A stretch of DNA of 64,000 bases, from assembly GCA_050693875.1 (NCBI GenBank), contig JBOGWP010000159.1:6003-70002 (forward strand). Direction: 5' to 3'. Position numbers and translations under genes: made by a program. Source of the stretch: Actinomycetota bacterium. Lineage in GTDB: Bacteria > Actinomycetota > CADDZG01 > JAHWKV01 > JBOGWP01. Below the pieces are notes generated by a model. That model was not told where the DNA came from and made no database searches. It saw only the letters and a program-made list of their open reading frames with translations. Every line of letters begins with the position of its first letter. Positions within the stretch are counted from its first letter, which is position 1. This document shows positions 20,579-37,844 of the stretch, piece after piece.

Positions 20579-21021
20579 GCTCCCTCCTGTCCGCCCCCCA
20601 GTGCCGGGGCCAAGTAAACCATTGAACGCGGTGAGTGGGTTGAGGTCGGCGCCTGTGGCGATCGCCGAACGCACCCGGGGCTAGGCGAACAATCCGGAGG
20701 TTTTGCTCGTCTCTTCGCGGTAGGAAAATTCATCGGCCTTTTCCGTAGTTTGCAGGTATCCCCCGGGCCCCGCACACCGAATAATTCGACCTTTGGAAGG
20801 CCGAGCCTGGGTCTCGGCCGGGGAGCAGCCAGGGGGTCGGGGGCGACCGCTCTCTTGCCTGCACCATCCGCGGTTTCACGGCGCGCGAGGAGGACCTGAT
20901 GGATCGAGGTAAGGCACGACGGAGCCTGGGGGCAGCGGGAGACATCCTCGCCGGAGGGAAAGGGCCGCACTCGCGGCGGCAGTCGCCGGGCAAACGAAGC
21001 CGGCTGCGCGCGTGGTCGCCG

Positions 21022-22872
21022 ATGATCGTTGGGTTCCTCCTCCTGCTGATGGGGGCGACCGCGGCGTTCGCACCCCCCGCACCTTCTGTCAGCCTCGACT
21101 TCGAGGCCGCCAATCCGACCACCTACGACCACTCCGACGGCGAGGGGGGAGGGACGCACGCGACCTCGGTCGAGTCACTGGAGGGCAAGGACTTCGCCTG
21201 CGGCGACCACGTGATCTACCTGGCCTACCTCACCGCCGAGGCCAACGTCCTGGCGAACTCGACGGTGGAGATCGACCTCGCCCTCGACAACGAGACCACC
21301 TCGAACAGCGAGGCCGGGTTCCTCCAGTTGCTCGAGGCCGAGATCAACACCGACCCCGCCAACGTGCTGAGCGGCAACGAGGCGGTCACGATCTCCTCTA
21401 CCGAGACGGCGACGGCACCCGGTGACCTTGCCGACGGAACCGTCGACTCCACCATCACCATCACGGGCGTCGACGCGAACGAGGCGATCGTGGTCCGGCT
21501 CGAGGGGCTGCTCGGCTGCGGCAGCGGCAAGATCACCGGCAACATCCACGCCCGGGCTGAGGCAATGCGCCTCAACGACGAAAACCAGTCGCTCGGGGCG
21601 CAGGACGTCCCCCTGATCGGCGCGGGGGAGATCGCCCGCGGCTCGCTGACGATCGTGAAGATCAGCGTCGGCGGGGTGGGGACCTTCACGTTCGATGTGA
21701 ACTGCACGCCCGACACGCCGACGTCCTTCGACCAGACCGACATCCCGATCACGACCACGACCCCTGGCGATCCCGTCTCGCACAACATTCCGGACATCCC
21801 GGTCGGCACGGTCTGCACCGTCACCGAGGACACACCACCCAGTGATTTCACGCTCACGAATACGGATCCCGCGACCGGCACGGTGACCATTGACGCCGAC
21901 GGGGAGACCGTGACCTTTACCAACACCCGCAAGACCGGAAGCCTCGTGATCGACAAGACCGTCGTCGGAGGCACCGGGTCGGAGAGCTTCTCGGTCGACG
22001 TCGATTGCAACGACGGGACGGCTCACGACAAGAGCAACGAGCCGATCACCGACACCACCGACATCACCATCACCGGCATCCCCACCGGGACGGTCTGCAC
22101 TGTCACCGAGGACGCCGATCCGCTCTTCACCACCACCATCGTCGACAGTGACGCCACCGACGACGGGGTGGTGACGATCGATGAGAACGGCGAGACGGTC
22201 AGCATCACCAACACCCGCAAGACCGGCGACCTGATCGTCGACAAGAACACCGAGTTCGGAGCGCACCAGGACCATGTGTTCACATTCCACGTCGACTGCG
22301 ACGGGACGGCCTTCGACTCGACGTTCACCCTCACGCCCGGCGACCCGCCCCATGAGATCACCGGCATCCCCACCGGCACGGTCTGCACCGTCACCGAGGA
22401 TTCGGACCCGGACTTCGAGCTCGTCTCCGTCACGCCCCCGGGCGGCACCGTGACGATCGTGGTCGGCGACACCACGGTCACATTCGTCAACAGCTTTCGC
22501 CACAACAACCAGGGATGCACGCCCGGCTACTGGAAGAACCATCTGGACGCGTGGCCGCCCACCGGCTACAGCCCGAACCAGACCCTGGAGAGCGTCTTCA
22601 ACGTTCCGAACGAGTTCGGTCTGGACAGCAAGACGCTGCTCCAGGCACTCTCGTTCCAGGGCGGGTCGACCAGGAAGGCCGCGGCCAGGATTCTCCTCCG
22701 CGCGGGGGTGGCGGCCCTGCTGAACTCGGCGCACCCCGACGTCGACTACCCGCTGACGACCGCCGAGGTCATCAGCAAGGTGAACACCGCCCTCACCAAG
22801 AGCCGGAGCGCCATGCTCACCCTTGCCAAGCAGCTGGACCAGAAGAACAACCTGGGCTGCCCGCTGTCGTAG
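21022..22872 (+). CDS. secreted protein with three tandem ~90-aa Cys-pair repeats and a C-terminal Cys-containing domain
   Basis: Signal peptide MIVGFLLLLMGATAAFA. Three repeats of the pattern FxVxCxxxx...ITGIPTGTVCTVTED...TVT(F/I)xNT. Resembles actinobacterial surface Ig-like (DUF5979-type) domains. Confidence 0.6.
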   Translation: MIVGFLLLLMGATAAFAPPAPSVSLDFEAANPTTYDHSDGEGGGTHATSVESLEGKDFACGDHVIYLAYLTAEANVLANSTVEIDLALDNETTSNSEAGFLQLLEAEINTDPANVLSGNEAVTISSTETATAPGDLADGTVDSTITITGVDANEAIVVRLEGLLGCGSGKITGNIHARAEAMRLNDENQSLGAQDVPLIGAGEIARGSLTIVKISVGGVGTFTFDVNCTPDTPTSFDQTDIPITTTTPGDPVSHNIPDIPVGTVCTVTEDTPPSDFTLTNTDPATGTVTIDADGETVTFTNTRKTGSLVIDKTVVGGTGSESFSVDVDCNDGTAHDKSNEPITDTTDITITGIPTGTVCTVTEDADPLFTTTIVDSDATDDGVVTIDENGETVSITNTRKTGDLIVDKNTEFGAHQDHVFTFHVDCDGTAFDSTFTLTPGDPPHEITGIPTGTVCTVTEDSDPDFELVSVTPPGGTVTIVVGDTTVTFVNSFRHNNQGCTPGYWKNHLDAWPPTGYSPNQTLESVFNVPNEFGLDSKTLLQALSFQGGSTRKAAARILLRAGVAALLNSAHPDVDYPLTTAEVISKVNTALTKSRSAMLTLAKQLDQKNNLGCPLS

Positions 22873-22896
22873 GGGCCCGATCGAACGGACGCAGGG

Positions 22897-23604
22897 TCAG
22901 GGCCGGCGTGCCAGGCAGACCCAGGAAAGCCCGCGGACGAAGGCGGGCCAGCGGTCGAAGAGGAGGCGCTCCGACCCGAAGATTGCCGTGAGAATCCGGT
23001 TGCCGAGCGGGCCGGGGGTCGAGTCGCCTACCTTGTCGAGGCGCCGGAGCACCGCGGCGACGGGATACATCCATACGTTCATCGGGCAGAGCAGCGTGAT
23101 CTTCAGCCCGGCCGCCACCACGAGCTTCTCGAGGGCCGCCCGCGTGTAGCGCCGCTGGTGATCGACCGCCTCATCGTGGCGGGACCACAGGTGGGGGTGC
23201 GCCGGGACCGAGATCAGAACGAAGCCACCAGGAGCCACGATGCGGGCGAGCTCGGCGGCCGAGGCCGCGTCGTCCGGGATGTGCTCGAGCACGTCCAGGC
23301 AGCACACTAGCTGGAGGCTTCGGTCGGGGAAGGGAAGCGGCCCGGGGAGCGTTGCGTCGTGGACCAGCTCCGGGTCCACGCCGGCGGAGGCGATCGCCGC
23401 TCGAAGCGAAGGGTCCGCCTCCACGAGGCGCACCGGACGAAAACGGCGGGCGAGTCGCGTGCCCCAGATCCCGGTCCCGGCGCCGACGTCGAGCGCCCAC
23501 CCGCCGGGCGGCACGCGACGGGCGACGATCTCGTCCAGCACGCGAAGACGGCCCTGGACCCACCAGTGGGTGTCGGAGAGGACTCCGTAGGCGAGGTCGG
23601 CCAT
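22897..23604 (-). CDS. class I SAM-dependent methyltransferase
   Basis: Motif I LDVGAGTGIWG and post-I CLDVLEHIPDD. Confidence 0.75.
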   Translation of the reverse strand: MADLAYGVLSDTHWWVQGRLRVLDEIVARRVPPGGWALDVGAGTGIWGTRLARRFRPVRLVEADPSLRAAIASAGVDPELVHDATLPGPLPFPDRSLQLVCCLDVLEHIPDDAASAAELARIVAPGGFVLISVPAHPHLWSRHDEAVDHQRRYTRAALEKLVVAAGLKITLLCPMNVWMYPVAAVLRRLDKVGDSTPGPLGNRILTAIFGSERLLFDRWPAFVRGLSWVCLARRP

Positions 23605-23608
23605 CAGG

Positions 23609-24270
23609 TCAGCGCCGGTGCCCGACGACGAGGTGGTGGGGGTGAAGATAGCCGCGGTGGATGGCGGACTCGGCCACGTCGAGCCCCGCTGCTCCCATCC
23701 ATCCCGCCAGCATTGCGGGCGGCACGAACGAGATTCCCGCCCCCTCGGTGATCCGTGCCAGCCGGACCGAGACGATCTCCTGTACCACCGCGAGGCCGTA
23801 CTTCCACCGCGGCTGCATCGCCACCTCCTTCACGACGAGCGCCCCTCCGTCTCCGAGTGCCGCGGCGCAGTGCTCGACGAAGGGCCGCTGGGCGGCGCGA
23901 TCGAGCAGGTAGAGCACGTCGATCACCACGACCGCGTCCCACGGACCGCGCGGAAGCGCGCCGAGGGACGTCTGCCGGAACTCCACGCTCGCCCCGAGAC
24001 GCCGAGCCCGCGCCGCGGCGGCCTGTGCGGCCGCGATCTTGTCGCCGTCGGTGTCGATCCCGACCACGCTTCGTCGGGGCGATTCGAGCGCCAGCCACAA
24101 CGATGCGAGCCCGTGTCCGCACCCGACCTCGAGCACCCGCCCCTCGCGGGGCACGGCGCCACCGATCCGCGGGAAGGGGCACGTCCACCACCGGAGGCGG
24201 AGGTGCGCTCGCACGGAGGGAGGGGCCTGCCCGAAGAGGTCGAGCGGGTGCGCCTTCGGGCGTGTGGTGG
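23609..24270 (-). CDS. class I SAM-dependent methyltransferase
   Basis: Motif I VLEVGCGHGLASLWLA and an acidic loop VVVIDVLYLLD. The start is uncertain; a GTG just after the upstream stop was chosen, and the longer ORFs in the track are Arg-rich shadows. Confidence 0.55.
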
Positions 24271-25125
24271 TCACCACGGCCGGCGAGAGACCGGGGCCAG
24301 GGAGGCCGGCGTCCCCAGGTGGAAGCCTCCACGTGCCACCGCCTGCGCCGCGCGGGCGCTGCAGAGCGCTTCGAGCTCCTCCGCCCAGCGGTAGCCCCAC
24401 CGGTACCGTTCGCGTTCGGGATCGTGGGGGCTCCCGGGATGACAGCAGAGCTCGGCCGAGGACGCGCCCTCTGCGGCGAGGCGTCCGACCATCTGCTCGA
24501 GCATGGACGTCGAGATCCGGCCGGACTCGTCGAGTCCGGCGAAGGACGCGGGGAAGCGGAGCCCGGCGGCGGAGGCGCGTTGGGCCAGCCGGCGGGCGAG
24601 CCGGTTGACCGCCCGCCCCACCGCACGTCCGGCCCGCGAACGGGGGACACGAAGGGCTGGGATCGCGCGCCGCTGGGCGATGCCGATGACCACGTCGCCG
24701 ACCGGGGGCCACAGGTGCAGGTGCTGATGGGCGTCCACGTGGGTGAGGGGCACCCCGAGGCCTGCGACTCGCTCGGCCTGGGCGTCGAACTCACGTCGCA
24801 GGTCGTCGGCGTCGATCCGCCCCGCCGCGGCCCGGCGTACGAACGATCGCCAGGAAGGTGCCAGCCGGCCTCGCCGGTCGACCAGCGTCGGGATCTCGCG
24901 CGCCGAGAGCAGGGGTGGATCCTCGCCAACCGCGGCGAGGTGCGCCCCCACGCCGAGCTCCCCAGAATCCGCGAGCAGCGACGCGGTACGGTCGAGCGCG
25001 GGCCCGAGGGCCAGCACCGACGTCGAGGTCACGATGCCCCGGTGGTGCGCCTCGAGGATGCCCAGGGAGACTCCCTCGGTGAGGCCGTAGTCATCCGCGG
25101 TGACGATCAGGAGGTCCGGGGTCAA
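24271..25125 (-). CDS. ChbG/YdjC-family carbohydrate deacetylase
   Basis: N-terminal LIVTADDYGLTEGVSLGILEAHHRGIVTSTSV and HVDAHQHLH match the YdjC family. TTG start. Confidence 0.75.
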   Translation of the reverse strand: MTPDLLIVTADDYGLTEGVSLGILEAHHRGIVTSTSVLALGPALDRTASLLADSGELGVGAHLAAVGEDPPLLSAREIPTLVDRRGRLAPSWRSFVRRAAAGRIDADDLRREFDAQAERVAGLGVPLTHVDAHQHLHLWPPVGDVVIGIAQRRAIPALRVPRSRAGRAVGRAVNRLARRLAQRASAAGLRFPASFAGLDESGRISTSMLEQMVGRLAAEGASSAELCCHPGSPHDPERERYRWGYRWAEELEALCSARAAQAVARGGFHLGTPASLAPVSRRPW

Positions 25126-25985
25126 TCGTCCCTCGTCGCGTCCACCGCTTGAGCGACGGGCCGCTCGGGACGGCGCGGGTCGAGTCGGTCGGGTCCGCGG
25201 CCTCGTCGCCGGTTCCTGTAGCCGAGTGGCCGCAGCCGAAGCGTCTGCGGCGGGAGCCGGCGGACGCCGCTGAGCTCGCTGCGCAGCGCCGACATCTCGC
25301 GAAGCACCTGCAGGATCACCGACCCGGACGACAGCGTCGAGGGCCCGCGCGTCCGGGCGAAGTAGTCCACGCCGAACTGGATGACGCCGTAACCCAGGCG
25401 ATGGGCCCGCACCAGCAGCTCGGCGTCGATGAAAGATCCCTCGCTTTTCAGCGAGAGGTGGTCGAAGATCCGCCGGCGGCAGAGCTTGAAGGAGAAGTTA
25501 ACGTCCCGGATGCGGAAATGGAAGAGGGCACGAACGAGCAGGTTGTAGCCCCAAGAGTAAAGAGCGCGGCGGGGCCCCTCGCTGGTTCGGTCGTGCCGGT
25601 AGGCGCTGACGACGTCGGCGCCGTAGATGCGCATCAGCCGGCAGGCCTTGCGCAGCTCTCCGAAGTCGAAGGGAAGGTCGGCGTCGGCGTAGCAGACCAG
25701 CTCTCCACGGGCCTCGGAGAACCCCGTCTTCAGCGAGCCGCCAAGCTTGCGATTGACCGGGTGGTGCACAACGCGAACATGGCGATCGTCGGCGGCCAGC
25801 TCCTCGCCGATCTTGCCGGTGGCGTCGGTGGATGCGTCGTCGACGACGAGAATCTCGTAGTCGGCGATCTCTCCCTCCGCGACGAGCTCCCTGCAGGTCT
25901 CGAGGGCTGCCGCGACCGCGGGCCGGATGTACGCCTCCTCGTTGTGCATCGGAAAGAAGACGGTGAGCGAGGAGAAGTTGGGCAT
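25122..25985 (-). CDS. GT2 polyprenol-phosphate glycosyltransferase (Ppm1/DPM1-like)
   Basis: Has the GT-A DxD region (EILVVDDASTDATG, YADADL) and the DPM1-like length and layout. Start at MPNFSSLTVFFP; the 711-aa ORF in the track is an upstream shadow. Confidence 0.8.
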   Translation of the reverse strand: MPNFSSLTVFFPMHNEEAYIRPAVAAALETCRELVAEGEIADYEILVVDDASTDATGKIGEELAADDRHVRVVHHPVNRKLGGSLKTGFSEARGELVCYADADLPFDFGELRKACRLMRIYGADVVSAYRHDRTSEGPRRALYSWGYNLLVRALFHFRIRDVNFSFKLCRRRIFDHLSLKSEGSFIDAELLVRAHRLGYGVIQFGVDYFARTRGPSTLSSGSVILQVLREMSALRSELSGVRRLPPQTLRLRPLGYRNRRRGRGPDRLDPRRPERPVAQAVDATRDD

Positions 25986-25987
25986 GG

Positions 25988-27223
25988 CTACGAGAGGTAC
26001 CAGCCCTGCGCGAAGAGCGCCGTGAAGGTGACCAGGAGCATTGTCGAGAGCCCCAGCAGGGCCATCGCGAGCCGCGGCCGCCCTTCGAGCAGGTCGGGGA
26101 GCACCGCGAAGCAGGGGAAGGCTGCGAGGATGTATCGCCCCATACCGGTGAAGTCCTTGCTCGCGATCGCCGGGAGGGCCAGCACGGCCAGAGCATATCC
26201 CCCGTAGCCCCACCCGAGGCGCCGGAACACCCGCGGGACGAGCACCAGCGCGCCCACCGCGAGGACGGCGTGGATGACGATCCGTGCCTGGCCAGGGTGC
26301 ACCGGGGGGATCGCGGCGAGCGCCTTGAAGAAGCTCAGCTTGAACCAGGTCGCAGGCCCAGCCCCTTGATCCCACCCGGGAGCCGATTGGGTTGCGGCGA
26401 AGGCGAGTGGGTCGCCGAATCGCTCCCACAGGTAGGCGAGATAGGCGACGAAGCCGAGGGGGGCGAGCAGCAATCCGGCGTCCCCCGGGCGGAGCGCTCG
26501 GAGGTTGAGCGAGTTGCCACGGCCTTCCGTCGCCGCCCCTCGGACCACACCTCGGCGTTCGAGCTGGCGAAGGAACAGCCCGGCGACGATCGCAGGGCCG
26601 ACCGGGCGCGTTGCCCCGGCGAGCAGCGCGAGCAGGCCGGCCGCCCAGGGCCGGTCGTGCTCGAGGAGGACGAATGCCCCGAGCGTGAGCGCGAGGAACA
26701 GCCCGTCGGCGTAGACCGCCCCGACGAGGAAGAACGAGAAGGGGTAGAAGGCGAGCGCGATCGAGGCGATGTCGGCCCGGTCCGCCCCGATCCGCCCTGC
26801 GCACCAGCGGTGGAAGAGCGACACCGAGGCGGCGCCGGCGACGAAGGTGAGCGCGATGCCGGCGTAGAAGGGGTTCGCACCAAGGTTCCTGGCGAGTCGA
26901 AGCGCCAGAGGATACAGGGGGAAGAAGGCGACGCCGGACGGGCGTCCCGGCTCGTAGGAGTAGCCGTGCTCGGCGATCCCCACGTACCAACCGGCATCCC
27001 AGCGCGCCCAAGAATCCAGCCATGGGCTCGCGGGGAGGTAGACGGGGTGTTCGGGGTTGTGCCCGGCGGTCGCGGCCACTCCGGCGGACACGATCACGAC
27101 GGCTGCAGCGACGACAAAGACGAGCAACGCCACGGCCCGGCGGCGGCGAGCGGGGGGCCGGGTGCGGACCTCGTCGGGAGTGTGAAGATCCTTCTCGGTG
27201 CTGCTCTGCACAGGAGCGCCCAT
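25988..27223 (-). CDS. PIG-V-like (Mannosyl_trans2, GT-C) integral-membrane mannosyltransferase, paralogue 1
   Basis: Multi-TM protein with the family signature near the N-terminus (WARWDAGWYVGIAEHGY ... AFFPLYP). Confidence 0.6.
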   Translation of the reverse strand: MGAPVQSSTEKDLHTPDEVRTRPPARRRRAVALLVFVVAAAVVIVSAGVAATAGHNPEHPVYLPASPWLDSWARWDAGWYVGIAEHGYSYEPGRPSGVAFFPLYPLALRLARNLGANPFYAGIALTFVAGAASVSLFHRWCAGRIGADRADIASIALAFYPFSFFLVGAVYADGLFLALTLGAFVLLEHDRPWAAGLLALLAGATRPVGPAIVAGLFLRQLERRGVVRGAATEGRGNSLNLRALRPGDAGLLLAPLGFVAYLAYLWERFGDPLAFAATQSAPGWDQGAGPATWFKLSFFKALAAIPPVHPGQARIVIHAVLAVGALVLVPRVFRRLGWGYGGYALAVLALPAIASKDFTGMGRYILAAFPCFAVLPDLLEGRPRLAMALLGLSTMLLVTFTALFAQGWYLS

Positions 27224-27348
27224 TATCCTCCGTCGTTCTCTCGGCCAAACTTCTCAAAATGCCTCATCCGTCCACTCTTGACATCAGTACCCCCCGCCCA
27301 TAGCGTGTCCCCGGCGGGGGGTCGGTACCAAACGAGAAGGAGGCCACA

Positions 27349-29193
27349 TTGCGACGTCGCACGCTCCTTGCCCACTCCGCCTTCCTGCTGGCCACCCTCG
27401 GCGTGTTCCCCGCATCGGGGGCCGAACAGACCATCGGCGCCGGGGCGACACTGAAGGATGCCGGCGGCGCCGATATTGGGTTCGTCTTCTTCGAGCAGGT
27501 CGGCGATGAGGTCGGGGTGGTCGTCGAGGTCCACGGGGGCATCGACCCCGGCTTCCACGGGTTCCACATTCACGACGTGGGCGACTGCACCGGCCCGACC
27601 TTCGTCTCGGCCGGTCTGCATTTCAAGCCAGGCAGCACCGATCACGCCGCCCATGCCGGCGACCTGCCGGCGCTCCTCGTGAACCAGGGCAACGCCGCGG
27701 TGGCCACCTTCATGACCGACCGCTTCGAGGTCTCCGACCTCTTTGGGGGAGACGGCACCTCGATCGTGATCCACGCCGACCCCGACAACTACGCCAACAT
27801 CCCCGACCGCTACTCCTCGAACGAGGGGGGTGCGCCGCCGACGGGGCCGGATACCACGACGCTGACTGCTGGCGACTCCGGCGACCGCGTGGCCTGCGGC
27901 GTGATCGAGGGCGCCGACGAGATGGCCTCGGACTTGAAGGCGGCAGAGGCTGCGTTCACCTCACCCGGCTATTGGATGGTGGCCTCAGACGGCGGCGTGT
28001 TCGCCTTCGACGCACCGTTCAAGGGCTCCACCGGCGGGATCGCCCTGAACCAGCCCATCGTCGCGATGGACGGAACCCCGTCAGGGGAGGGCTATTGGAT
28101 GGTGGCCTCAGACGGCGGTGTGTTCGCCTTTGCCGACGCCGGGTTCAAAGGGTCGACCGGCGGAACGAAGCTCAACAAGCCGATCGTCTCGATGGCGGCG
28201 ACCGAGACCGGAAACGGCTATTGGATGGCTGCGAGCGACGGCGGCGTCTTCGCCTTCGGCGACGCCGGCTTCCTCGGCTCCACGGGAGGGATCACCCTGA
28301 ACTCGCCGATCGTCGGCATGGCCGGCCGGCACCCGGGTGCTCAGGCCGACATCAAGAACACCGCCGGCCAGGTCGTCGGCCGCGCACGCTTCGAGGAGGC
28401 GGACGGTGCGCTGTTCGTCACGGCGGAGCTCAGCGGGCTGACGCCCGGCTTTCACGGGTTCCACATCCACACGACGGGAGAGTGCACGGGGAGCTTCACC
28501 TCCGCCGGTGGACATATCAACCCGGCGCCGGCCCAGCCCCACGGTGACCACATCGGCGACCTCCCCGTGCTGCTGGTCGAGGCCGACGGGACCGTCACGG
28601 GGGCCACATACGCGACCGACCGCTTCACGCTCGCCGACCTCTTCGACGCCGACGGGAGCGCGCTCGTCGTGCACTCCGCTCCAGACAACTTCGCCAACAT
28701 CCCAGACCGCTACTCCTCGAGCGAGCCCGGCGCGCCGGCGACGGGGGCGGACGCCACGACGCTCGCCGCGGGGGACTCGGGCTCGAGAGTGGCCTGCGGG
28801 GTCGTCGAGGGTTCGGACAAGCCCGGCTACTGGATGGCGGCTGCCGACGGCGGCGTGTTCGCCTTCGGCGGAGCGGCCTTCCACGGCTCTACCGGGTCGA
28901 TCAAGCTCAACAAGCAGATCGTGGGCATGGCGGCAACCCCAAGTGGCCAGGGCTACTGGCTGGTCGCCTCGGATGGCGGGGTCTTCGCCTTCGGAGATGC
29001 CAAATTCCACGGCTCCACCGGTTCGATCAAGCTCAACTCGCCGATCGTCGGGATCGCATCCACACGAACCGGTGAGGGCTACTGGCTGGTTGCCGCAGAC
29101 GGCGGTGTGTTCGCCTTCGGTGACGCCGAGTTCAAGGGGTCGACCGGCAGTCTCAAGCTCAACAAACCGATCGTGGCGGTGGCCGCCGCCTAG
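27349..29193 (+). CDS. secreted tandem Cu/Zn superoxide dismutase (SodC) domains, each followed by three GYW/DGGVF repeats
   Basis: TTG start with a GAAGGAGG RBS, then a signal peptide. Both SodC domains have the full ligand set (HGFHIHD; H..H..H..D; IVIHADPDN; GDSGDRVACGVIEG). Confidence 0.8.
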   Translation: MRRRTLLAHSAFLLATLGVFPASGAEQTIGAGATLKDAGGADIGFVFFEQVGDEVGVVVEVHGGIDPGFHGFHIHDVGDCTGPTFVSAGLHFKPGSTDHAAHAGDLPALLVNQGNAAVATFMTDRFEVSDLFGGDGTSIVIHADPDNYANIPDRYSSNEGGAPPTGPDTTTLTAGDSGDRVACGVIEGADEMASDLKAAEAAFTSPGYWMVASDGGVFAFDAPFKGSTGGIALNQPIVAMDGTPSGEGYWMVASDGGVFAFADAGFKGSTGGTKLNKPIVSMAATETGNGYWMAASDGGVFAFGDAGFLGSTGGITLNSPIVGMAGRHPGAQADIKNTAGQVVGRARFEEADGALFVTAELSGLTPGFHGFHIHTTGECTGSFTSAGGHINPAPAQPHGDHIGDLPVLLVEADGTVTGATYATDRFTLADLFDADGSALVVHSAPDNFANIPDRYSSSEPGAPATGADATTLAAGDSGSRVACGVVEGSDKPGYWMAAADGGVFAFGGAAFHGSTGSIKLNKQIVGMAATPSGQGYWLVASDGGVFAFGDAKFHGSTGSIKLNSPIVGIASTRTGEGYWLVAADGGVFAFGDAEFKGSTGSLKLNKPIVAVAAA

Positions 29194-29291
29194 CCGCGCA
29201 ATCGAGGGCGCCCGCGCCGTTCGCGGCGCGGGCACTGCGGGCTGGGCTGCGTGCGGCCCGCGCGAAGCCACCAGCCGACGTCCGCAGCCGG

Positions 29292-31439
29292 TCAGGGAGC
29301 GAGCGCCAGATCGAGCGCGGTGATGCGCAGCCCGCCCGCCCACGGGCTGCCGTAGTACGGTGCGTCCCCGTAGGCGTTGAGAGAGCCGCCGCTTCCCAGC
29401 ACGTAGTACCCCCTTCCGGTGGCCGTCGAGGCGACGCGCACCGCGGACATACCCGTGCCGGCGGCGGATCCAAGGAAGGACGCGTCCCCGAACGCGAAGA
29501 CCCCGCCGTCCTCACCGACGAGCCAGTACCCCTGCCCGGAGGGAGTCGGCGCCATCCCGGCGATGGGGCGGTTGAGCCGGATCCCGCCGGTCGAGCCGTG
29601 AAAGGCCGCGTCTCCGAAGGCGAACACCCCGCCATCCGAGGCAACCAGCCAGTACCCCGCCCCGGTCGGCGTGGGGGCCATGCCCACGATGGGCCTGTTC
29701 AGAGGGAGTCCCCCGGTGGAGCCGTGGAAGGCCGCGTCTCCGAACGCGAACAGGCCGCCGTCCGACGCCACCATCCAGTACCCCTCGCCTCCCGTGGAAG
29801 TGCCCATGTCGACGATTGGCTCGTTCAGCCGGGTGCCGCCCATCGATCCGGAGAAGCCGGCACTCCCGAACGCGAACACGCCTCCGTCGGCCGCCACCAT
29901 CCAGTAGCCGTCAGGCCCGGGGACACCCCCCGGCTCCCCTCCGACACCCCTGGGCGTGGACACGTCCATGGCCACGGCCGGGGAGTTGAGCCGCATACCG
30001 CCGGTCGATCCTAGAAAGGGCGCGGACCCGTAGCTGAAGATCCCCCCATCCGAGCCCATCACCCAGTATCCCGAGGGAACCTCGCCCTCGGTGACGACGT
30101 AGCGCCCGCTCACCGGGGCGGTGGGTGACGCCCTGCCCGGCGCGTCGAAGGCGGTGGCGCGAACCGAGTAGGTGTCCAGGGCCAGGGGGAGTCCGCCGTA
30201 GTCGGCATCGGTGACTGCGAAGGATCCTGCCGATGCCGGAACCGATACCGTCCGGACAGGCCCACCGCCCACGGGCGTGAACGTCGTCTCCACCCGGGTG
30301 GTCGCCCGGCTCACCGCACCCGAGAGTCCCGGCGTCACGTCCTTCGTCACCCCCGCGGGGAGGAGCTGCGTGCCCGTCGGCATCGAGGGCGAGCTCAGGG
30401 CGGAGAGGGCGTTGATGCGCGAGTCCACCGCCTGACGGACCGAGGGCAGCTGGCCGTAGAGGAGGTCGCCGGGACATTCGGTGTCGCCGGCGTCCTTGTG
30501 ACCGGCAATGTTGGGGATCGAGTCCGCCGACCCGAGGGGGTCGATTCCGTGGCGGTCGGCCTTCCAGGACAGAAGTGCGACGAGCGACTCCAGGGCGGCC
30601 GGGCGTGGCATCACGGACCGGAAGTCGCCGAGCACCGCCACGCCGGCGCTGCCCGTGTTCCATCCCGAGACGTGCGCCCCGACCACGCCGAGCCCGTTTG
30701 CGTTCTCGCCGCTCGGCTCGCCATCGGGCCGGGCGTAGCGGCCCTCGTAGACGCGACCGTTCGAGTCGACGAGGAAGTTGTAGCCGATGTCGTCCCAGCC
30801 GCGAGACTGGGTGTGGTAGCTGTAGATTGCTCGGATCGTTCCTTCCGGATCCGCGTCGTCGTTCACAGTCACGGTGTGGTGGACAAACAATCGCCGCACC
30901 CTGGCGAAGCTGGGGGAAGCCTTCCGGAGCGACTCGTCGGCGCCCCACTCGGCCCGCGAGATCACCGGGGGCCCCGGCGTTGCCCCCGAGGCGGCACGGT
31001 CGACCAGAATGGAGCGGCGGGGACCGTCGCGGGTGTTGATCGCACTGACGTAAAGCCGGGCGTCCCCGCCGCGCACCTGGACCCATTCGGCTCGGTCGAC
31101 GGAGATCAGCGTGCCGAAGAACAGGCCGGCGTCGTGATCGCTCAAATCCTCCGACACCTCGACCAGCCGCCAGGCAGACCACGAGATGCCGTCGGGGCTC
31201 GTCCGAACCTCGGGCGGGTCGTCCCCGATCCACGACAGACCCAGGTGGGTGGCCGCGAAGGGGAGCGCCTGAGGTGCCCGGGGAGTGCCCGGGCTGACGT
31301 CCGGGGCGCCCATCCGGACGTAGAGCGTCCTCGGGACGTCGAAGGCGAACGAGGCGGAGACCACGACCGGGAGCAGCCCCGCGACGAGCCCGAGCACGAC
31401 CAGGAGTCGGATGGGGGCCCGCAAAGCGCTGGTACGCAT
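29292..31439 (-). CDS. secreted peptidoglycan amidase (Amidase_2/PGRP domain) with six C-terminal GYW/DGGVF repeats
   Basis: Signal peptide. Amidase_2 core (LFVHHTVT...HTQSRGWDDIGYNFLVDSNGRVYEGR...AGHKDAGDTECPG). C-terminal repeats. Confidence 0.8.
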   Translation of the reverse strand: MRTSALRAPIRLLVVLGLVAGLLPVVVSASFAFDVPRTLYVRMGAPDVSPGTPRAPQALPFAATHLGLSWIGDDPPEVRTSPDGISWSAWRLVEVSEDLSDHDAGLFFGTLISVDRAEWVQVRGGDARLYVSAINTRDGPRRSILVDRAASGATPGPPVISRAEWGADESLRKASPSFARVRRLFVHHTVTVNDDADPEGTIRAIYSYHTQSRGWDDIGYNFLVDSNGRVYEGRYARPDGEPSGENANGLGVVGAHVSGWNTGSAGVAVLGDFRSVMPRPAALESLVALLSWKADRHGIDPLGSADSIPNIAGHKDAGDTECPGDLLYGQLPSVRQAVDSRINALSALSSPSMPTGTQLLPAGVTKDVTPGLSGAVSRATTRVETTFTPVGGGPVRTVSVPASAGSFAVTDADYGGLPLALDTYSVRATAFDAPGRASPTAPVSGRYVVTEGEVPSGYWVMGSDGGIFSYGSAPFLGSTGGMRLNSPAVAMDVSTPRGVGGEPGGVPGPDGYWMVAADGGVFAFGSAGFSGSMGGTRLNEPIVDMGTSTGGEGYWMVASDGGLFAFGDAAFHGSTGGLPLNRPIVGMAPTPTGAGYWLVASDGGVFAFGDAAFHGSTGGIRLNRPIAGMAPTPSGQGYWLVGEDGGVFAFGDASFLGSAAGTGMSAVRVASTATGRGYYVLGSGGSLNAYGDAPYYGSPWAGGLRITALDLALAP

Positions 31440-31506
31440 TCATCCTTTTTCGACTCACAGCCGGGTGGCCTTGACCGGTCCGGGGGGTCTGGGGGCCTGA
31501 TCCGGG

Positions 31507-32667
31507 TCAGGGGGTGAAGATGATGGTCGTCCCCGCGACGAGGAGCAGCGCCGGCATCAGGGCGGCCGAGAGCCCCAGGATGGCCAGAAAGGGCGCCCCG
31601 CGGACCTCGCGGGCCCCCGCCAGCAGCAGCGGGAACGCCATCAAGATCGACCGGGGCGTGAAGTAGTACGCGGGGGACAGGACGAAGGGCAGCACCATGC
31701 CCGCGGCGTAGATCACCAGGATGAACGGTGGCCGCCACCGCCAGAGCGCCACCCCGAGCGGGACGAGGGCGACCAGGGAGAGGGTCGACACGAGGAGGTT
31801 GAAGTCGCCGAGCGGGTCCAGCAGCACCTCCCGGGCGTTGCGGAGCGCGCTGAGACCGAAGTCGATTCCCTGCCCCCACCCCCGCTGCTGTGCGAGCGGC
31901 CAGGCGAGCGGGTTCCCGGTATGGCGCCAGAGGTAGGTGAAGAACGCCAGCGCGCCCAGCGGTGCGATAAGCGGTGCGGCGAGGGCCTTCCAGGCTCGTT
32001 CCTCCTTGATCGCAACGCCGGCGGCCCAGAGGCAGCACGCTGCCAGGAAGATGCCGTTCGGCCGCACCGCCGAGGCGGCCGCCGCGGCGAGCCCGGCGAG
32101 GAGCCACCGGCGGTGGAGGAGCGCGAGCAGGCACGCCGCCGCAGCAAGGACGAAGACCCCCTCGGCATAGACCATCGAGAGCACGAAGGATCCGGGAAAG
32201 AACGACCACAGGGCGACCGCACGCAGGGCGGCGTCCTCGTCGAGGAGCTGGCGGGCGAGCAGCCAGATCACGACCGCCGCCAGCGACCCGGCGGCGATCG
32301 AGATGAGCACCCCGCTCGAGGGGGGCCCCAGCCCGGTCACCTCCGATACGAAGCGGATCAGCACCGGGTAGCCGGGGAAAAAGGCAAGTGTGGTCTGGGC
32401 CGCAGGTCCCCGTCCGGTGGGGAGCGAGTTGGGGTACCCGGCGATCGCGGCCCCCAGGTACCAGTCGCCATCCCACTTCGCCAGGACCTCGACGACGCTC
32501 GCCTTGCCCGCGACGAGCTTCCCGGCGTAGGCGGCGACGAGCGTGACGACCCGTGAGGCGAGGAAGATGGCAAGCGGGGCCAGCGCCCGGCGGGCCAGGG
32601 ATCGCGGGAGCAGTTCCGGGACGTCCCGACTCTGCGGGTGGCTGGGGCTGGTCGCGGTCGTTGTCAC
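31507..32667 (-). CDS. PIG-V-like GT-C mannosyltransferase, paralogue 2
   Basis: LAKWDGDWYLGAAIAGYP ... AFFPGYPVL. Multi-TM. Confidence 0.6.
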   Translation of the reverse strand: MTTTATSPSHPQSRDVPELLPRSLARRALAPLAIFLASRVVTLVAAYAGKLVAGKASVVEVLAKWDGDWYLGAAIAGYPNSLPTGRGPAAQTTLAFFPGYPVLIRFVSEVTGLGPPSSGVLISIAAGSLAAVVIWLLARQLLDEDAALRAVALWSFFPGSFVLSMVYAEGVFVLAAAACLLALLHRRWLLAGLAAAAASAVRPNGIFLAACCLWAAGVAIKEERAWKALAAPLIAPLGALAFFTYLWRHTGNPLAWPLAQQRGWGQGIDFGLSALRNAREVLLDPLGDFNLLVSTLSLVALVPLGVALWRWRPPFILVIYAAGMVLPFVLSPAYYFTPRSILMAFPLLLAGAREVRGAPFLAILGLSAALMPALLLVAGTTIIFTP

Positions 32668-32770
32668 CGGGAAGGGACACTACCAACCGGGAAAGCGGCG
32701 ATAGCGAACACGGGCCGGCTCCTCCACTATTCTCGCGACCGAATTCGGTCGGCACATACGGGAGGATTCG

Positions 32771-33864
32771 TGACAGGCGGGCTGCGACTCCTCGTCTTCC
32801 TGGCCGGGGCCGTGGTCGTCGCGGCAACCTTCGGGTCGTCGCTTCGGACCGTGATGCTGCCACGCGGTATTCCTTCGCGGCTCACGCGCTCCGTCTTCAT
32901 CACGGTCCGCCAGCTGTTCCGGCTGCGTGCGGGACCCGGGGCGACGTTCGAGAAGCGCGACCGGGTGATGGCGGTATATGCACCGTTCAGCCTGCTCGTG
33001 CTGCTCTCGGTCTGGCTCGCCCTGGTGCTGGCGGGATACACGGCAATGTTCCTCGGGGCGGCCCCGCGTAGTCTCCGTGAGGCCTTCCTGCTGTCGGGCT
33101 CGTCGCTGCTGACCCTCGGCTTCACCCGGCCGGCCGACCTCCCGTCGTCCCTGCTCGCCTTCTCCGAGGCGGGCCTTGGGCTCGCGCTCTTCGCGCTCCT
33201 GATCACGTTCCTGCCCACCATCTATGCCGCCTTCTCCCGGCGGGAGGCCGCGGTGAATGCGCTCGAGGTCCGGGCCGGCTCGCCGCCGTCGGGGGTCGAG
33301 ATGATTCTTCGCTTCTCCCGTCTCGGCCGGGTCCAGCTGCTCACCGAGGAGGTATGGGTGCGGTGGGAAGACTGGTTCGGCGACGTCGAGGAGTCGCACA
33401 CCTCGTTCCCGGCCCTCGTCTTCTTCCGGTCGCCCCAACCCGACCACTCCTGGATCACGGCTGCCGGGGCGGTGCTCGACGCCGCCTCGCTGATGGCGTC
33501 GGTCGTCGCGACCGAGCGCGACGTGCAGGCCGAGCTCACCGTGCGAGCCGGCTACATCGCCCTGCGCCGGATCTGCGACGTGTTTCGCATCCCCTACGAC
33601 CCGGAGCCGCGCAGCGGCGACCCGATCGGCCTGGACCGCAGCGAGTTCGACGAGGCATGCGCTCGCCTGGCTGCCGGCGGAGTGCCGCTTCGGCCCGATC
33701 TCGACCGGGCGTGGAGGGACTTCCGGGGATGGAGGGTCAACTACGACCAGGTCTTGATCGCGCTCGCCGGGCTGACCATGGCGCCCTACGCGCCGTGGTC
33801 CTCCGACCGGTCGTTGCGCCGGTACAAGTCGCTCCTGACCGGTTCACAGCGAGGAGGAGCGTAG
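32771..33864 (+). CDS. hypothetical membrane protein
   Basis: GTG start with a GGGAGG RBS. About four N-terminal TM helices followed by a soluble domain with no recognisable motif. Confidence 0.45.
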
Positions 33865-33868
33865 CCGC

Positions 33869-34981
33869 TCACGGTGTGAAGGAGACCGTGGCACCGGCGA
33901 GAAGGGCGAGGACGGCCATCAGCGAGGCACTGGCCGCCAGCAGTCCGGCGAAGGCCGAGCCGCGGACCGCCCGGGCGGTGGCGATGAGCAGGGGGAAGGC
34001 GATCACGAAGGTCCGCGGGGTGAGGTGGTGGCCCCGAGAGATGATCACGGGGATGGCGATCGCAAGGGTGTAGATCACCAGCACGACCGGCGGCCGCCAG
34101 CGGGTCAGCAGCACCATCGCCGCGATCAGGGCCACGAAGGTGAGGCCGGAGGCGAGGAGGTTGAAGTCGTCGAGGGGCCCTCGGGCGACGTGGACGACGT
34201 TGGTGACCGCCGACCAGCCGAAGTCGACCCCCTGCGCCCACCCGCGCGCCTGGGCATGCGGCCATGCCAGGGGATCACCGGTCCGTTCGAACAGGTAGGT
34301 GAAGAACGCGAGCGCACCGAGGGGTGCGAGCAGTGGCGCCGTCAAGGCACGAAGCCCTCGCCCTGCGCGCAGCGCCACGACGGCGGCCCAGAGGCAGCAG
34401 GCCACCAGGAACATCCCGTTCGGGCGCACCGCGCCGGCCAGGGCGGCGGTCACGCCGGCGACCACCCACCGCTCCCGCAGCAGGGCGTGCAGGCAGAGGA
34501 TGGCAAGCAGGAGGAACAGCCCGTCGGCGTAGACCATCGACAGCGCCTGGGCGCCCGGGAAGAACGACCACAGGGCGACGGAACGGGTGGCGAGGGACCG
34601 GTCGCTCAGACGCTGCACGAGGAACCATAGGGCTACGGCGGCGACCGTCGATGCGATGGTCGAGACGACGACGCCCGCGGTGATGGAGTAGACGCCCCGA
34701 TCCATGAGGCCGCGGACGAGCAGCGGATACCCCGGGAGGAACGCAAGGGTGCTCTGCGCGGGGTTTCCCACGCCCACCGGGACCGCGTGGGGATAGCCGC
34801 GCTCGGCGAGCCGCAGGTACCAGGCGCCGTCCCACCGGCCGAGCACGTCGATCAGGCTGTCCTCGGGCCCCACGAGGACAGCCGCGTAGGCGGCGGCGAG
34901 CACGGCGAGGCGCGAGGCGAGGAAGATCCCCAGCGGGATCGCGGCGCGCGTCGCAATGTCCTGCAGGCGGGACCGCCACAT
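33869..34981 (-). CDS. PIG-V-like GT-C mannosyltransferase, paralogue 3
   Basis: LGRWDGAWYLRLAERGYP ... AFLPGYPLL. Start at the internal Met MWRSRLQDIA; the first 129 aa of the ORF in the track are an out-of-frame shadow of the neighbouring repeat region. Confidence 0.6.
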   Translation of the reverse strand: MWRSRLQDIATRAAIPLGIFLASRLAVLAAAYAAVLVGPEDSLIDVLGRWDGAWYLRLAERGYPHAVPVGVGNPAQSTLAFLPGYPLLVRGLMDRGVYSITAGVVVSTIASTVAAVALWFLVQRLSDRSLATRSVALWSFFPGAQALSMVYADGLFLLLAILCLHALLRERWVVAGVTAALAGAVRPNGMFLVACCLWAAVVALRAGRGLRALTAPLLAPLGALAFFTYLFERTGDPLAWPHAQARGWAQGVDFGWSAVTNVVHVARGPLDDFNLLASGLTFVALIAAMVLLTRWRPPVVLVIYTLAIAIPVIISRGHHLTPRTFVIAFPLLIATARAVRGSAFAGLLAASASLMAVLALLAGATVSFTP

Positions 34982-35057
34982 GGCGGCACGATTATCGAGC
35001 GTGGTCGGCGCGGGCGGCGGCAGGATGCCGGAGGCCGGGGCGGTGGGGCGGTGCCGG

Positions 35058-36791
35058 CTACCGGGCGATGCCGACGATCGGCTTGTTGAGCCGGATGCCC
35101 CCCGTCGAGCCGAAGAATCCGGCATCTCCGAAGGAGAAGACGCCGCCGTCCGAGGCGACGAGCCAGTAGCCCGACCCGGTCGAGGTCCCGGCCATTCCGA
35201 CAATCGGCTGGTTGAGCTTGATGCCGCCGGTGGATCCGTGGAACGCGGCATCGCCGAAAGCGAAGATCCCCCCGTCGGAGGCGACGAGCCAGTAGCCCCT
35301 GCCGGTCGGCGTCGCGGCCATCCCCACGATCGGCTGGTTGAGGCGCATCCCGCCCGTCGAGCCGGCAAAGCCCGCGTCGCCGAAGGCGAAGATCCCGCCG
35401 TCGGATGCCACCATCCAGTAACCGCGGCCCGATGGGGTCGTCTCGATGCCCACGATGGGACGGTTCAGCCGAAGGCCCCCGGTGGAACCGAAGAACCCGG
35501 CGTTGCCGAACGAGAACACGCCGCCGTCCGAGGCGACCATCAGGTAGCCGTCGGGGGCAAAGACCTGGAACCAGTCCGACCGCAGCCCCAGCTTCGACCG
35601 GACGTCGCTGCCCGTCACGACCACGCTTCCCGCCGTACCGACCAGCCGCATTCGGGTGACGCGCCCCCCGAGGTCACCGAGCCCATTGCGCTCGAGCACC
35701 TCGAGCCCGATGAGATGACCAATCTCCGGCCACGCCGCATCGACGGCGGGGACCGCAACCGACGTCCGCCACTGGTGGTTCGGGTTCTGGGAAACGTCGT
35801 CGCCGTCGTCGGGGACCGCCGGAAAGACCCCGCCGGCAGTCCAGCCCCCCGTCGACGAGGAGTACTCGGCCCGGGCCACACCCCCGTTGCGGAACCGCAC
35901 CTGGCCGGCAGTCTCGGAAACCGCGGAGTCGGTGGACGGCTGCTCGACGTCGCGGTAACCGCCCGGACCCTGCTCGGCGCGGCCCAGGTACACCTGGCAG
36001 GCGGTGGAGTCGCACGTCCGGCCGAACGATTGCACCTGGGACATCGCGTAGGAGCGTGCCGCCACGGCCTGCGCGCGGAGCGCATGCATGCCCATCCCGC
36101 CGCCGAGGCCTCCCCACGACGACGGTGACTCCGCGGGTACAACGCCGCGCAGATACGCCTCGAGCGGCAGCTCGTTGACGGTGCGTTGGAGGGCGTCCTC
36201 CTCGAAGCTGCGCAGGCTTCCTCGCAGCCAGCGAGTCGTTCCACCCGGCTCACACACCTGGAGCATCTCCTCACGTTCGCCCGTCGGATTCGTGGGCTCG
36301 ACCACGACCGGGCCGATCGCGCCGCCGTTGATGAGCGTCCACGGACCCCCGCACCCGCCGCCCGAGAACACCTGGAACAGGTTTGGCCCGATCCGGTGCA
36401 CCAGCAGGCCGGAGTGCTGTCCGGGGCCGCTCGGGGTCTGCATGTGGCCGCGCTCCTGCGCGACGACGAGGTCGGCGTTCTCGAATCGTGTGAGACGGAC
36501 GGCGATGACGCCGTCACCGACCGCGCCCGGCGATGTTCCCCCGTAAAAGTGCCCAAGGATGCTCCCGTAGTCCCAGCGCTCGTCGACGGCGTAGCCGAGC
36601 GCGCCGTACTGGCCCATGCCACGGCCGTGACCCCAGCCGTGCCCCTCGAGCTCGACGGTGGGGGCGGGGTAGGCGAGGACGGGCGCCCCCGGCAACGCGG
36701 TGACGCCCAACGCAATCAGCGCTGCGGCGACGAGCGTGACGAAACGGAAGCCCCTGGGACGAGACGCGCCGAGGCGAGGGTTCGAGGTCAT
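35058..36791 (-). CDS. secreted SpoIID/LytB-domain protein with four C-terminal GYW/DGGVF repeats
   Basis: Start MTSNPRLG with a signal peptide. SpoIID/LytB signatures ([26 protein letters not shown]) and four repeats. Confidence 0.8.
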
Positions 36792-36874
36792 GACGTGAAA
36801 GGAAACCACGCGGCGGCGGGTCGCCGCAGGTTTTCCGGCGGATCTGCACGGCCCGTCTGCTAGCGTTTCCCGCC

Positions 36875-37840: not shown

Positions 37841-37844
37841 CGGG

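Follow-up and report, generated by a model that had tools for sequence, protein, structure and literature searches.

A single gene that encodes a secreted protein with two Cu/Zn superoxide dismutase (SodC) domains and six short repeats raises the question of how these parts are arranged in one polypeptide, whether both domains are equipped for catalysis, and what the repeats do. We examined this gene in a stretch of 64,000 nucleotides from an Actinomycetota bacterium, hereafter called the window. The original prediction had described two complete SodC domains, each followed by its own triplet of repeats, in a secreted and surface-tethered protein.

The open reading frame listing of the window gave a 614-amino-acid (aa) frame with a TTG start at exactly 27349 to 29193 on the forward strand. 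This start is supported by the Shine-Dalgarno sequence ahead of it (Table 1), and the NCBI protein entry of the tandem SOD (P0001) has the same TTG start. Besides, the identical 614-aa protein was present in two independent assemblies, the NCBI MAG GCA_975100735.1 and a Logan assembly. Such proteins are currently annotated as "superoxide dismutase family protein" or "hypothetical protein." The N-terminus has the composition of a signal peptide, with a basic n-region, a hydrophobic helix, and an A-S-G cleavage-type motif, and AF2 modeled the helix at aa 2 to 16 with a pLDDT below 50. Since the signal peptide contains no Cys, the tandem SOD is not a lipoprotein; a lipobox was found in none of the 72 tandem-SOD family members, 12 of which carry a loose twin-arginine pattern. 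Lipoboxes were present in three single-domain SodC genes (L048, L070, and L080) from Acidimicrobiia or Acidimicrobiales MAGs. A plain signal peptide without any anchor was found in 63 of the 73 single-domain SodC relatives checked (various phyla, many Actinomycetota), and an anchor is therefore not obligatory for SodC. Searches of the 614-aa protein by sequence, Pfam, and NCBIfam gave no lipobox, sortase motif, or known wall-binding domain. Of the proposed surface tethering, the envelope location thus stands as reasonable, given that the repeats are common to cell-wall enzymes, whereas the tether itself is something we infer for a protein with neither a lipobox nor a sortase motif.

TABLE 1 Features of the tandem-SOD gene and its flanks (positions are those of the window)
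Feature	Position	Strand	Remarks
Shine-Dalgarno sequence GAAGGAGG	27336..27343	+	5 nt ahead of TTG start 27349; read from sequence
Signal peptide, aa 1-24	27349..27420	+	MRRRTLLAHSAFLLATLGVFPASG then AEQ; from sequence, cleavage site judged by eye
SodC domain 1, aa 28-188	27430..27912	+	Cu H73/H75/H91/H142; Zn H91/H99/H102/D105; C80-C183; D146; R180
SodC1-propeller linker, aa 189-204	27913..27960	+	Short helix aa 194-201 (AF2); pLDDT about 69-72, weakest after signal peptide
Propeller repeats 1-3 (predicted), aa 205-327	27961..28329	+	Units from aa 207, 248, and 290
SodC domain 2, aa 328-490	28330..28818	+	Cu H372/H374/H389/H442; Zn H389/H398/H401/D404; C379-C483; D446; R480
Propeller repeats 4-6 (predicted), aa 491-614	28819..29190	+	Units from aa 493, 535, and 577; protein ends with last strand of repeat 6
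GC-rich hairpin	29210..29233		10-bp stem, 4-nt loop; in 98-nt gap between convergent SOD and amidase genes; without U-tract

Pfam Sod_Cu (PF00080) matched the 614-aa protein twice (E 2.2e-61; 206.5 bits against a cutoff of 28.9), with its best stretch in domain 2 at aa 343 to 486. A purpose-built HMM placed the SodC domains at about aa 28 to 190 and 328 to 490, and 149 PDB SOD sequences matched the protein at E ≤ 1e-3. Ligands were assigned by alignment to human SOD1, and the residue numbers were read off the sequence. The Cu ligands (equivalents of human H46, H48, H63, and H120) and the Zn ligands (equivalents of H63, H71, H80, and D83) are complete in both domains, as are the equivalents of the intrasubunit disulfide C57-C146, D124, and the catalytic Arg143. 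The alignments to Sod_Cu and human SOD1 thus revealed no loss of an essential Cu or Zn ligand in either domain, and the prediction of two complete SodC domains in one secreted polypeptide was confirmed. The four Cu and four Zn ligands claimed for each domain are indeed all present, but the bridging His is shared, so that seven residues are involved per domain and not eight. Besides, the GDSGxRVACGVIEG signature ascribed to each domain needs correction in domain 2, which reads GDSGSRVACGVVEG and not ...VIEG.

Across the 72 homologues, the equivalents of the ligands, the disulfide cysteines, D124, and R143 are invariant or nearly so, and the four cysteines themselves (C80/C183 and C379/C483) are invariant. 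MAFFT placed human C57 a few columns off the family Cys, and the cysteine was assigned via a conserved GxC motif, which also occurs in the mycobacterial SodC sequences aligned. Among the 68 homologues whose repeats are split 2+4 (see below), each ligand is kept in 63 to 68 in domain 1 and in 59 to 68 in domain 2; the losses in domain 2 amount to 0 to 9 by position, with R in place of H80 in 8 homologues and in place of H46 in 5. This conservation pattern indicates selection on both metal sites, and, as far as can be read from the sequence, both SodC domains are apparently catalytically complete. Only 2 residues separate the H71 and H80 equivalents in the shortened Zn sub-loop (H-x-x-H; 8 residues in human SOD1), so that the ligands alone do not guarantee Zn occupancy. 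The closest solved relative, Mycobacterium tuberculosis SodC, is Cu-only and binds no Zn (PMC4712152). Zinc binding is therefore uncertain in the tandem SOD. The intramolecular pseudo-dimer suggested in the original prediction was not confirmed: in a comparison with the eukaryote-type geometry, the tethered SOD1 dimer 6dtk_A superposed on one domain only (155 residues).

The order SodC1-three repeats-SodC2-three repeats was found as predicted (Table 1). The repeat unit is 42 aa long and reads GYW..DGGVF..FxGSTG..LNxPIV, with the full signature GYW/DGG/FGDA/GSTG/LNxPIVGMA. The notion of separate, interleaved triplets did not hold; instead, the two triplets are predicted with high confidence to be the halves of a single closed six-bladed β-propeller in which SodC2 is nested. 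The AF2 model of the 614-aa protein had a pLDDT of 91.6 and a pTM of 0.87, and in this prediction six repeats of the size of a four-stranded blade close one ring, as expected of a β-propeller. SodC2 joins repeats 3 and 4 via linkers of about 2 to 3 residues, and the modeled strands around it are E321-327 and E330-337 on one side and E480-489 and E493-498 on the other. Such an insertion is structurally feasible, as the SOD barrel begins and ends with two strands that are direct neighbors.

The homologues bear on the same point. Among the best 120, the architecture S-rr-S-rrrr (S, SodC domain; r, repeat) was found in 68, S-rrr-S-rrr in 4 (including the 614-aa protein), and a contiguous rrrrrr in 40, and the total was six in all 72 tandem-SOD homologues, whether split 2+4 or 3+3. 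Since the six-repeat module also occurs contiguously and the total is constant, SodC2 is best read as an insertion at the repeat 3/4 boundary of one propeller, a point defined by the sequence repeats from which the true blade boundaries may differ. The contiguous modules have a strict period of 42 aa and mostly lie at the C-terminus, in some proteins also near the N-terminus. The six contiguous repeats at the C-terminus (aa 450 to 715) of the neighboring amidase (29292 to 31439) gave a confident fold (pLDDT, 88.1; pTM, 0.85) that matches propellers. Exceptions to six are a SpoIID protein in the window with four repeats and one homologue with 11; thus, the six-repeat count holds as a strong rule but not without exception. 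The individual blades are almost identical, and an attempt to match repeats 1 to 6 to blades 1 to 6 in order was abandoned, as profiles built from 36 contiguous modules scored within a few bits.

The module gave 19,128 hits, and 9,093 cluster representatives (clusters at 50% identity) contained it at E ≤ 1e-30. No Pfam or NCBIfam model, including SGL, matched the repeats in the scan of the 614-aa protein, and the module profile gave only low-complexity noise against PDB sequences (E > 0.6). Foldseek returned generic WD40-type matches only (TM, 0.27 to 0.62), and identity did not exceed 17% for any solved propeller whose alignment covered at least about 190 residues; the YWTD, NHL, PknD-sensor, and fucose-lectin (RSL and AAL) six-bladed propellers were 4 to 12% identical to the module. 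In 79 representatives, the module was fused to 55 Pfam families (e.g., CHAP, Amidase_3, subtilase, fn3, TIG, and CAP), and YkuD was among the families fused to it elsewhere. Within the window, it was fused to Amidase_2 (in the adjoining gene), SpoIID, and an FG-GAP protein. From these fusions, the propeller appears to be a lineage-specific carrier module on many secreted Acidimicrobiia enzymes. The best 120 matches included at least 72 complete tandem-SOD homologues, each a 90%-identity cluster. The architecture, which had been considered unusual, is thus seldom met with in the literature although not rare in nature, and the tandem-SOD design is common in uncultured Acidimicrobiia.

The window contains a cell-envelope glycan locus with methyltransferase, YdjC, GT2, GT-C, and epimerase genes, and several module-bearing genes are clustered in the window among glycosyltransferase genes. 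A conserved neighborhood was considered and rejected: a homologue (P0002) lies in an unrelated context, and an operon logic was not supported. A promoter scan and a consensus terminator scan around the tandem-SOD gene found none. The hairpin downstream of the gene (Table 1) had a folding energy of -33.8 kcal/mol with a z score of only -0.9 against shuffles, and it is a possible but weak candidate for a bidirectional terminator. At z scores of about -1, the two hairpins picked by eye were no better than shuffled sequence.

We compared the tandem SOD with known systems. DrSOD (DR_A0202) of Deinococcus radiodurans joins a Cu/Zn-SOD to an SGL lactonase propeller of six blades (PDB 9m58; PMC12362111), and it likewise combines SodC, with Cu and Zn ligands, and a six-bladed β-propeller in one exported bacterial polypeptide. 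However, DrSOD has one SOD and, behind it, an uninterrupted SGL propeller that binds Ca and acts as a lactonase, whereas the tandem SOD has two, one of them nested, and its propeller belongs to another repeat family without a Pfam match or SGL signature. Chain 9m58_A superposed on about one SOD domain (148 residues), and the 614-aa protein is not an SGL fusion. The structural paper on this bacterial SOD-propeller fusion dates from 2025, and its InterPro survey of SOD-plus-propeller proteins mentions no Acidimicrobiia family (PMC12362111).

Animal tandem Cu-only SOD repeat proteins (CSRPs) resemble the tandem SOD in having several SOD-fold domains in one extracellular polypeptide held at the surface, as we infer for the tandem SOD. 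They are eukaryotic and GPI-anchored and consist of 4 to 12 directly adjacent Cu-only domains without a Zn site or long electrostatic loop, whereas the tandem SOD is from a bacterial MAG and has two domains, all Zn ligands, a long loop before GDSGxR, and propeller repeats between the domains; thus, the 614-aa protein is not a CSRP. Mycobacterial SodC is a lipoprotein. It (PDB 1pzs, 6adq, and 7rh5; NF047631) has the same long insertion before GDSGxR but is single-domain and Cu-only (PMC4712152), whereas the tandem SOD has two domains, no lipobox, and a full set of Zn ligands. Indeed, the M. tuberculosis SodC chain lacks, in the alignment, the two His residues equivalent to H99 and H102. A mycobacterial-type assignment was rejected, because the NCBIfam equivalog model NF047631 reached 255 against a cutoff of 230 only by summing two partial matches (profile positions 71 to 236), the signal peptide has no Cys, and the Zn ligands are complete.

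Together, we propose that the tandem SOD is an exported, non-lipidated protein of three folded units, namely, SodC1, a six-bladed propeller, and a nested SodC2. Since the full catalytic apparatus is kept in both SOD domains, each would be expected to act as a superoxide dismutase on the outer side of the cytoplasmic membrane. Plausibly, the propeller would retain these domains at the cell envelope through contacts with a wall polymer, made by binding sites that recur almost unchanged from blade to blade; such uniform blades are easier to reconcile with repeated sites than with a single active site in the center. The result would be a cell surface bearing a fixed, bivalent layer of SOD. We hold this explanation as a whole (two active SODs, one split propeller, and an envelope-retaining carrier) to be probably correct, with moderate confidence.

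The 3+3 arrangement might also be read as a duplicated cassette of one SodC and three repeats, in which the triplets are independent linear wall-binding units of choline-binding or CWB-like type, one per SOD. The two halves do align end to end at a spacing of about 300 aa, with DNA repeats 897 to 900 nt apart that are 71 to 79% identical, and the two SOD domains are each other's closest relatives in an NJ tree. Nevertheless, a duplicated cassette cannot give the 2+4 split of 68 of the 72 homologues, in which the total is still six, and 40 other proteins carry the six-repeat unit without interruption, which makes this reading very unlikely. A recent duplication of the halves is ruled out by their identities of 63 to 79% at the DNA level and 52% between the SOD domains at the protein level; the duplication is old. 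Duplication of a half-propeller is a possible origin of the 3+3 lineage, and its product would still be one ring. Another view is that at least one of the two SodC domains is no dismutase but a copper-binding, chaperone-like, or structural domain, comparable to CCS domain II or Bacillus subtilis YojM. The ligand losses in domain 2 of the 2+4 homologues suggest that a second domain can decay, and the Zn sub-loop is shortened. Since neither domain of the 614-aa protein lacks a ligand, the disulfide pair, the D124 equivalent, or the catalytic Arg, and the M. tuberculosis enzyme, which is Cu-only, has full activity without Zn (PMC4712152), we consider this extremely unlikely.

As for the propeller, DrSOD is a precedent for a bifunctional enzyme (PMC12362111), in which the propeller would be a second catalytic or small-ligand-binding domain. 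Such a role is unlikely here: the repeats match neither Pfam SGL nor another enzyme family, no solved propeller comes closer than the identity given above, and the blades are homogenized, whereas enzyme blades diverge around a single active site. Besides, occurrence on 55 unrelated enzyme- or adhesin-type families is typical of targeting or binding modules. The propeller might instead be a sorting or assembly tag, serving a dedicated export or attachment system or oligomerization rather than binding a wall polymer directly. In secreted proteins of very diverse kinds, it mostly forms the extreme C-terminal end, which would suit a tag, as would the clustering of module genes among the glycosyltransferase genes of the window. 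However, a sorting signal of about 250 aa would be large, the module is found near the N-terminus as well and is split by an insertion in the tandem SOD, no candidate partner system was found, and the gene surroundings of the tandem SOD are not conserved. A tag is thus improbable.

Returning to the wall-binding carrier that we favor, we tentatively suggest a more specific form, which is possible but rather doubtful: the propeller may be the recognition module of a hitherto unrecognized, Acidimicrobiia-specific surface-display system, a multivalent lectin-like domain that would make the tandem SOD a wall-bound bivalent scavenger. Its ligand may be a wall glycopolymer from loci like the surrounding glycosyltransferase cluster, and the second catalytic domain may have been grafted into the anchor itself, giving a rigid SOD scavenger.

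In reviews of Cu/Zn SODs, fusions and tandem arrays are found mainly in eukaryotes. Our search of the literature on Acidimicrobiia with SOD or propeller returned nothing relevant, and no paper describing the tandem-SOD design was found. The tandem-SOD family adds a bacterial tandem Cu/Zn SOD with both domains apparently active, judging from their residues, and a natural domain insertion that places a whole enzyme at a repeat boundary inside a predicted β-propeller. The insertion point depends on the lineage (2+4 versus 3+3), and the blade count stays six. It also points to a very large repeat family without a model, which appears to tag a large share of the proteins secreted by Acidimicrobiia; the practical outputs would be a new Pfam family and improved annotation. 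Acidimicrobiia are a widespread, mostly uncultured, and monoderm lineage of soil and water. Should the propeller bind the cell wall, it would define the way in which enzymes are kept at the surface of these monoderm bacteria.

The tandem superoxide dismutase (SOD) gene encodes a 614-aa protein with a TTG start in the ORF listing of the window, and a Shine-Dalgarno sequence, GAAGGAGG, lies upstream of this codon. The identical protein is encoded by an NCBI contig of an Actinomycetota MAG (GCA_975100735.1), where it is named "superoxide dismutase family protein" (P0001), and by a Logan assembly independent of it, which, together with the Shine-Dalgarno sequence, indicates that the gene is real and its boundaries are sound. 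Two stretches matched Pfam Sod_Cu (E value of 2.2e-61), and a custom HMM of the two domains placed SodC1 at about residues 28 to 190 and SodC2 at about residues 328 to 490. Repeats of the GYW...DGGVF type begin at residues 207, 248, and 290 and again at residues 493, 535, and 577, and their DNA forms arrays with a period of 126 nt. Thus, the order of SodC1, three repeats, SodC2, and three repeats in the original prediction is right, far beyond chance, and its interpretation is only partly supported. The NCBIfam equivalog "SodCMycob" scored 255 bits against 230 bits; we rejected this membership since the cutoff was passed only through the sum of two partial matches.

Upstream of the gene, we noted by eye a promoter-like pair (TTGACA-17 nt-TAGCGT) and a 10-bp GC palindrome (CCCCCCGCCC ... 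GGGCGGGGGG), which spans the -10-like hexamer and might therefore be an operator or a 5' hairpin. A consensus scan of this region returned no promoter, and the palindrome did not fold better than shuffled sequence.

Features of the tandem SOD gene, its upstream region, its locus, and other repeat-bearing genes in the window
Feature	Position	Strand	Content
Region of the promoter-like pair and palindrome	27278..27322	+	TTGACA-17 nt-TAGCGT
GC palindrome	27289-27298 and 27313-27322		10 bp
Shine-Dalgarno	27336-27343	+	5 nt upstream of TTG
Tandem SOD	27349..29193	+	two SodC domains; 6 repeats (3+3)
Amidase_2 gene	29292..31439	-	6 repeats, at its end
FG-GAP gene	39871..42099	-	6 repeats, at its end
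Gene without Pfam match	19310..20680	-	6 repeats, at its end
SpoIID gene	about 35052..36785	-	4 repeats, at its end
Degenerate repeats	12888..13174	-	2 degenerate repeats in different frames; no other content
Cell-envelope glycan locus	about 21400..39000		contains the SOD gene

According to one rival reading, the SOD domains are non-catalytic. Loss of ligands, which the original prediction had named as its refuting condition, was sought by aligning 144 SOD domains of 72 homologues with human SOD1, and none was lost in SodC1 or SodC2, both of which have the complete ligand set. The cysteines and several ligands were invariant in all 72 homologues. Among the homologues with two repeats before and four after SodC2 (the 2+4 form), each ligand was kept by domain 1 in 63 to 68 of 68 proteins and by domain 2 in 59 to 68 of 68; depending on the position, a given ligand is lost from domain 2 in up to 9 of the 68. 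The Zn subloop between the equivalents of H71 and H80 is shortened to H-x-x-H, and judging from these alignments, zinc binding by SodC1 and SodC2 is likely, not established.

Active-site residues of the two SOD domains
Role	Human SOD1	SodC1	SodC2
Cu ligands	H46, H48, H120	H73, H75, H142	H372, H374, H442
Bridging Cu/Zn ligand	H63	H91	H389
Zn ligands	H71, H80, D83	H99, H102, D105	H398, H401, D404
Second shell	D124	D146	D446
Catalytic Arg	R143	R180	R480
Disulfide	C57-C146	C80-C183	C379-C483

We classified the best 120 homologues by HMMs of the SOD domain and the repeat. The 2+4 form accounted for 68 proteins and the 3+3 form for 4 (the tandem SOD of the window, P0036, P0092, and P0095), six contiguous repeats were present in 40, and 8 were truncated or odd. 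Contiguous modules repeat every 42 aa with hardly an exception, and they usually occupy some 250 aa at the extreme C terminus. The total stays at six whether the second SOD domain follows repeat 2 or repeat 3, which argues that six repeats form one unit. An AlphaFold2 model of the tandem SOD from the 72-sequence alignment was very confident (mean pLDDT, 91.6; pTM, 0.87), and such a pTM over 614 residues implies that the relative placement of all parts is predicted with confidence. Its structural matches include the YWTD propellers of LRP6 and LDLR; as a triplet spans only about 125 residues and the alignments exceed 200 residues at about 3 Å, both triplets are predicted to lie in one closed ring. 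Furthermore, the six contiguous repeats of the neighboring amidase, modeled alone, gave a confident fold (pLDDT, 88.1; pTM, 0.85) with propeller matches.

In the model, SodC2 is a nested domain insertion at the boundary between repeats 3 and 4, joined to the flanking repeats by 2 to 3 residues per side (strands 321-327 and 330-337; strands 480-489 and 493-498). The SOD barrel has its N- and C-terminal strands next to each other, which makes insertion through such short joins possible. Between SodC1 and the propeller lies a linker of 16 residues that includes a short helix. When a tethered SOD1 dimer in a single chain (6dtk_A) was superposed on the model, it matched only one SOD domain, and hence the model does not predict the suggested intramolecular pseudodimer, at least of the eukaryotic type.

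Duplication of half a gene, SodC with three repeats, could have given rise to the 3+3 form, although this too would yield a single ring. The two halves share 63 to 79% DNA identity, and SodC1 and SodC2 share 52% protein identity, so that the duplication must be old. In a neighbor-joining tree of SOD domains, which carries no support values, all eight domains from the four 3+3 proteins fell into one clade and paired as sisters within three of the four, including that of the window, whereas domain-1 and domain-2 blocks alternated in the 2+4 lineages. These sequence comparisons suggest that the 3+3 proteins are a lineage apart from the more frequent 2+4 proteins. Within single 2+4 homologues (P0002 to P0119), the two SOD domains were 40 to 87% identical, which, with the alternating blocks, suggests gene conversion between the domains or repeated duplication. 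Two Thermoplasmata archaeon MAGs encode proteins of about 380 to 390 aa with two SodC domains and a lipobox-like motif and without propeller repeats (L038, about 519-1595; L044, about 1666-2586), which by sequence are a tandem SodC architecture of archaea, independent of the propeller-borne one.

The repeat module has no model in Pfam or NCBIfam, and no PDB sequence matched its profile. A phmmer search with one six-repeat module against 1.84 billion cluster representatives matched 19,128 proteins at E values of ≤1e-3, 15,481 at ≤1e-10, and 9,093 at ≤1e-30. Partner domains from 55 Pfam families occurred in 79 of the matched representatives, and those listed (CHAP, Amidase_3, subtilase, peptidase A4, pro-kumamolisin, polysaccharide deacetylase, CAP, fn3, TIG, Ig-like, and cadherin-like) look extracytoplasmic; GH43 and YkuD with PG_binding_1 were found in the first homologue search. 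Named homologues are from Acidimicrobiales, Acidimicrobiia, or unclassified Actinomycetota MAGs. In the window, the SpoIID gene breaks the six-repeat rule, and its product could form a four-bladed ring or need a partner. The second of the two degenerate repeats runs into a stop codon, and the pair looks like what is left of a gene that once bore the module, or like a frameshift. The glycan locus (L081) contains two SAM methyltransferase genes, YdjC, GT2, three GT-C/PIG-V/PMT-like mannosyltransferase genes, two NAD-dependent epimerase/dehydratase genes, the amidase, and SpoIID; the neighborhood of homologue P0002 is unrelated to it.

The tandem SOD has a typical N-terminal signal peptide, a lipobox was found in none of the 72 family members, and a loose twin-arginine pattern occurred in only 12 of them; on these grounds, we regard the tandem SOD as exported, probably via Sec, and as lacking a lipid anchor. 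Because peptidoglycan hydrolases and a wide range of other secreted proteins carry the module, and its blades hardly differ from each other, we favor the view that it is a multivalent binding module, which would hold its cargo at the cell envelope. The propeller might instead be enzymatic, as in DrSOD (DR_A0202) of Deinococcus radiodurans, the closest architecture, in which a single SodC precedes a Ca-binding SGL lactonase propeller (PMC12362111, PDB 9m58), or be a sorting or assembly tag. If the propeller is a retention module, the tandem SOD would place two fixed SOD sites on the surface of a monoderm cell. Single-domain SodC genes of Acidimicrobiia/Acidimicrobiales MAGs (L048, L070, and L080) encode a lipobox (…LAACG…) and, after it, a long linker of low complexity, an alternative means of holding SodC at the membrane. 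Acidimicrobiia may thus have two solutions, lipoprotein SodC and propeller-borne tandem SodC. Among 73 single-domain SodC relatives checked from various phyla, many of them Actinomycetota, 63 had no anchor at all.

Animal tandem SOD arrays, the CSRPs, are Cu-only and GPI anchored (PMC13017621). Unlike DrSOD and the CSRPs, the tandem SOD has two domains with complete Zn ligands, one nested in a propeller, and its repeats belong to an undescribed family. An InterPro survey of SOD-plus-propeller proteins (56 entries) does not mention the Acidimicrobiia family (PMC12362111), likely because the repeats lack a Pfam or NCBIfam model. We found no literature on an Acidimicrobiia SOD or propeller, which, given incomplete coverage, is absence of evidence only. 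The proteins are already public database entries with a generic name, and ordinary SOD chemistry is expected of them; what deserves specialist attention is the topology, together with how large the unannotated propeller family is.
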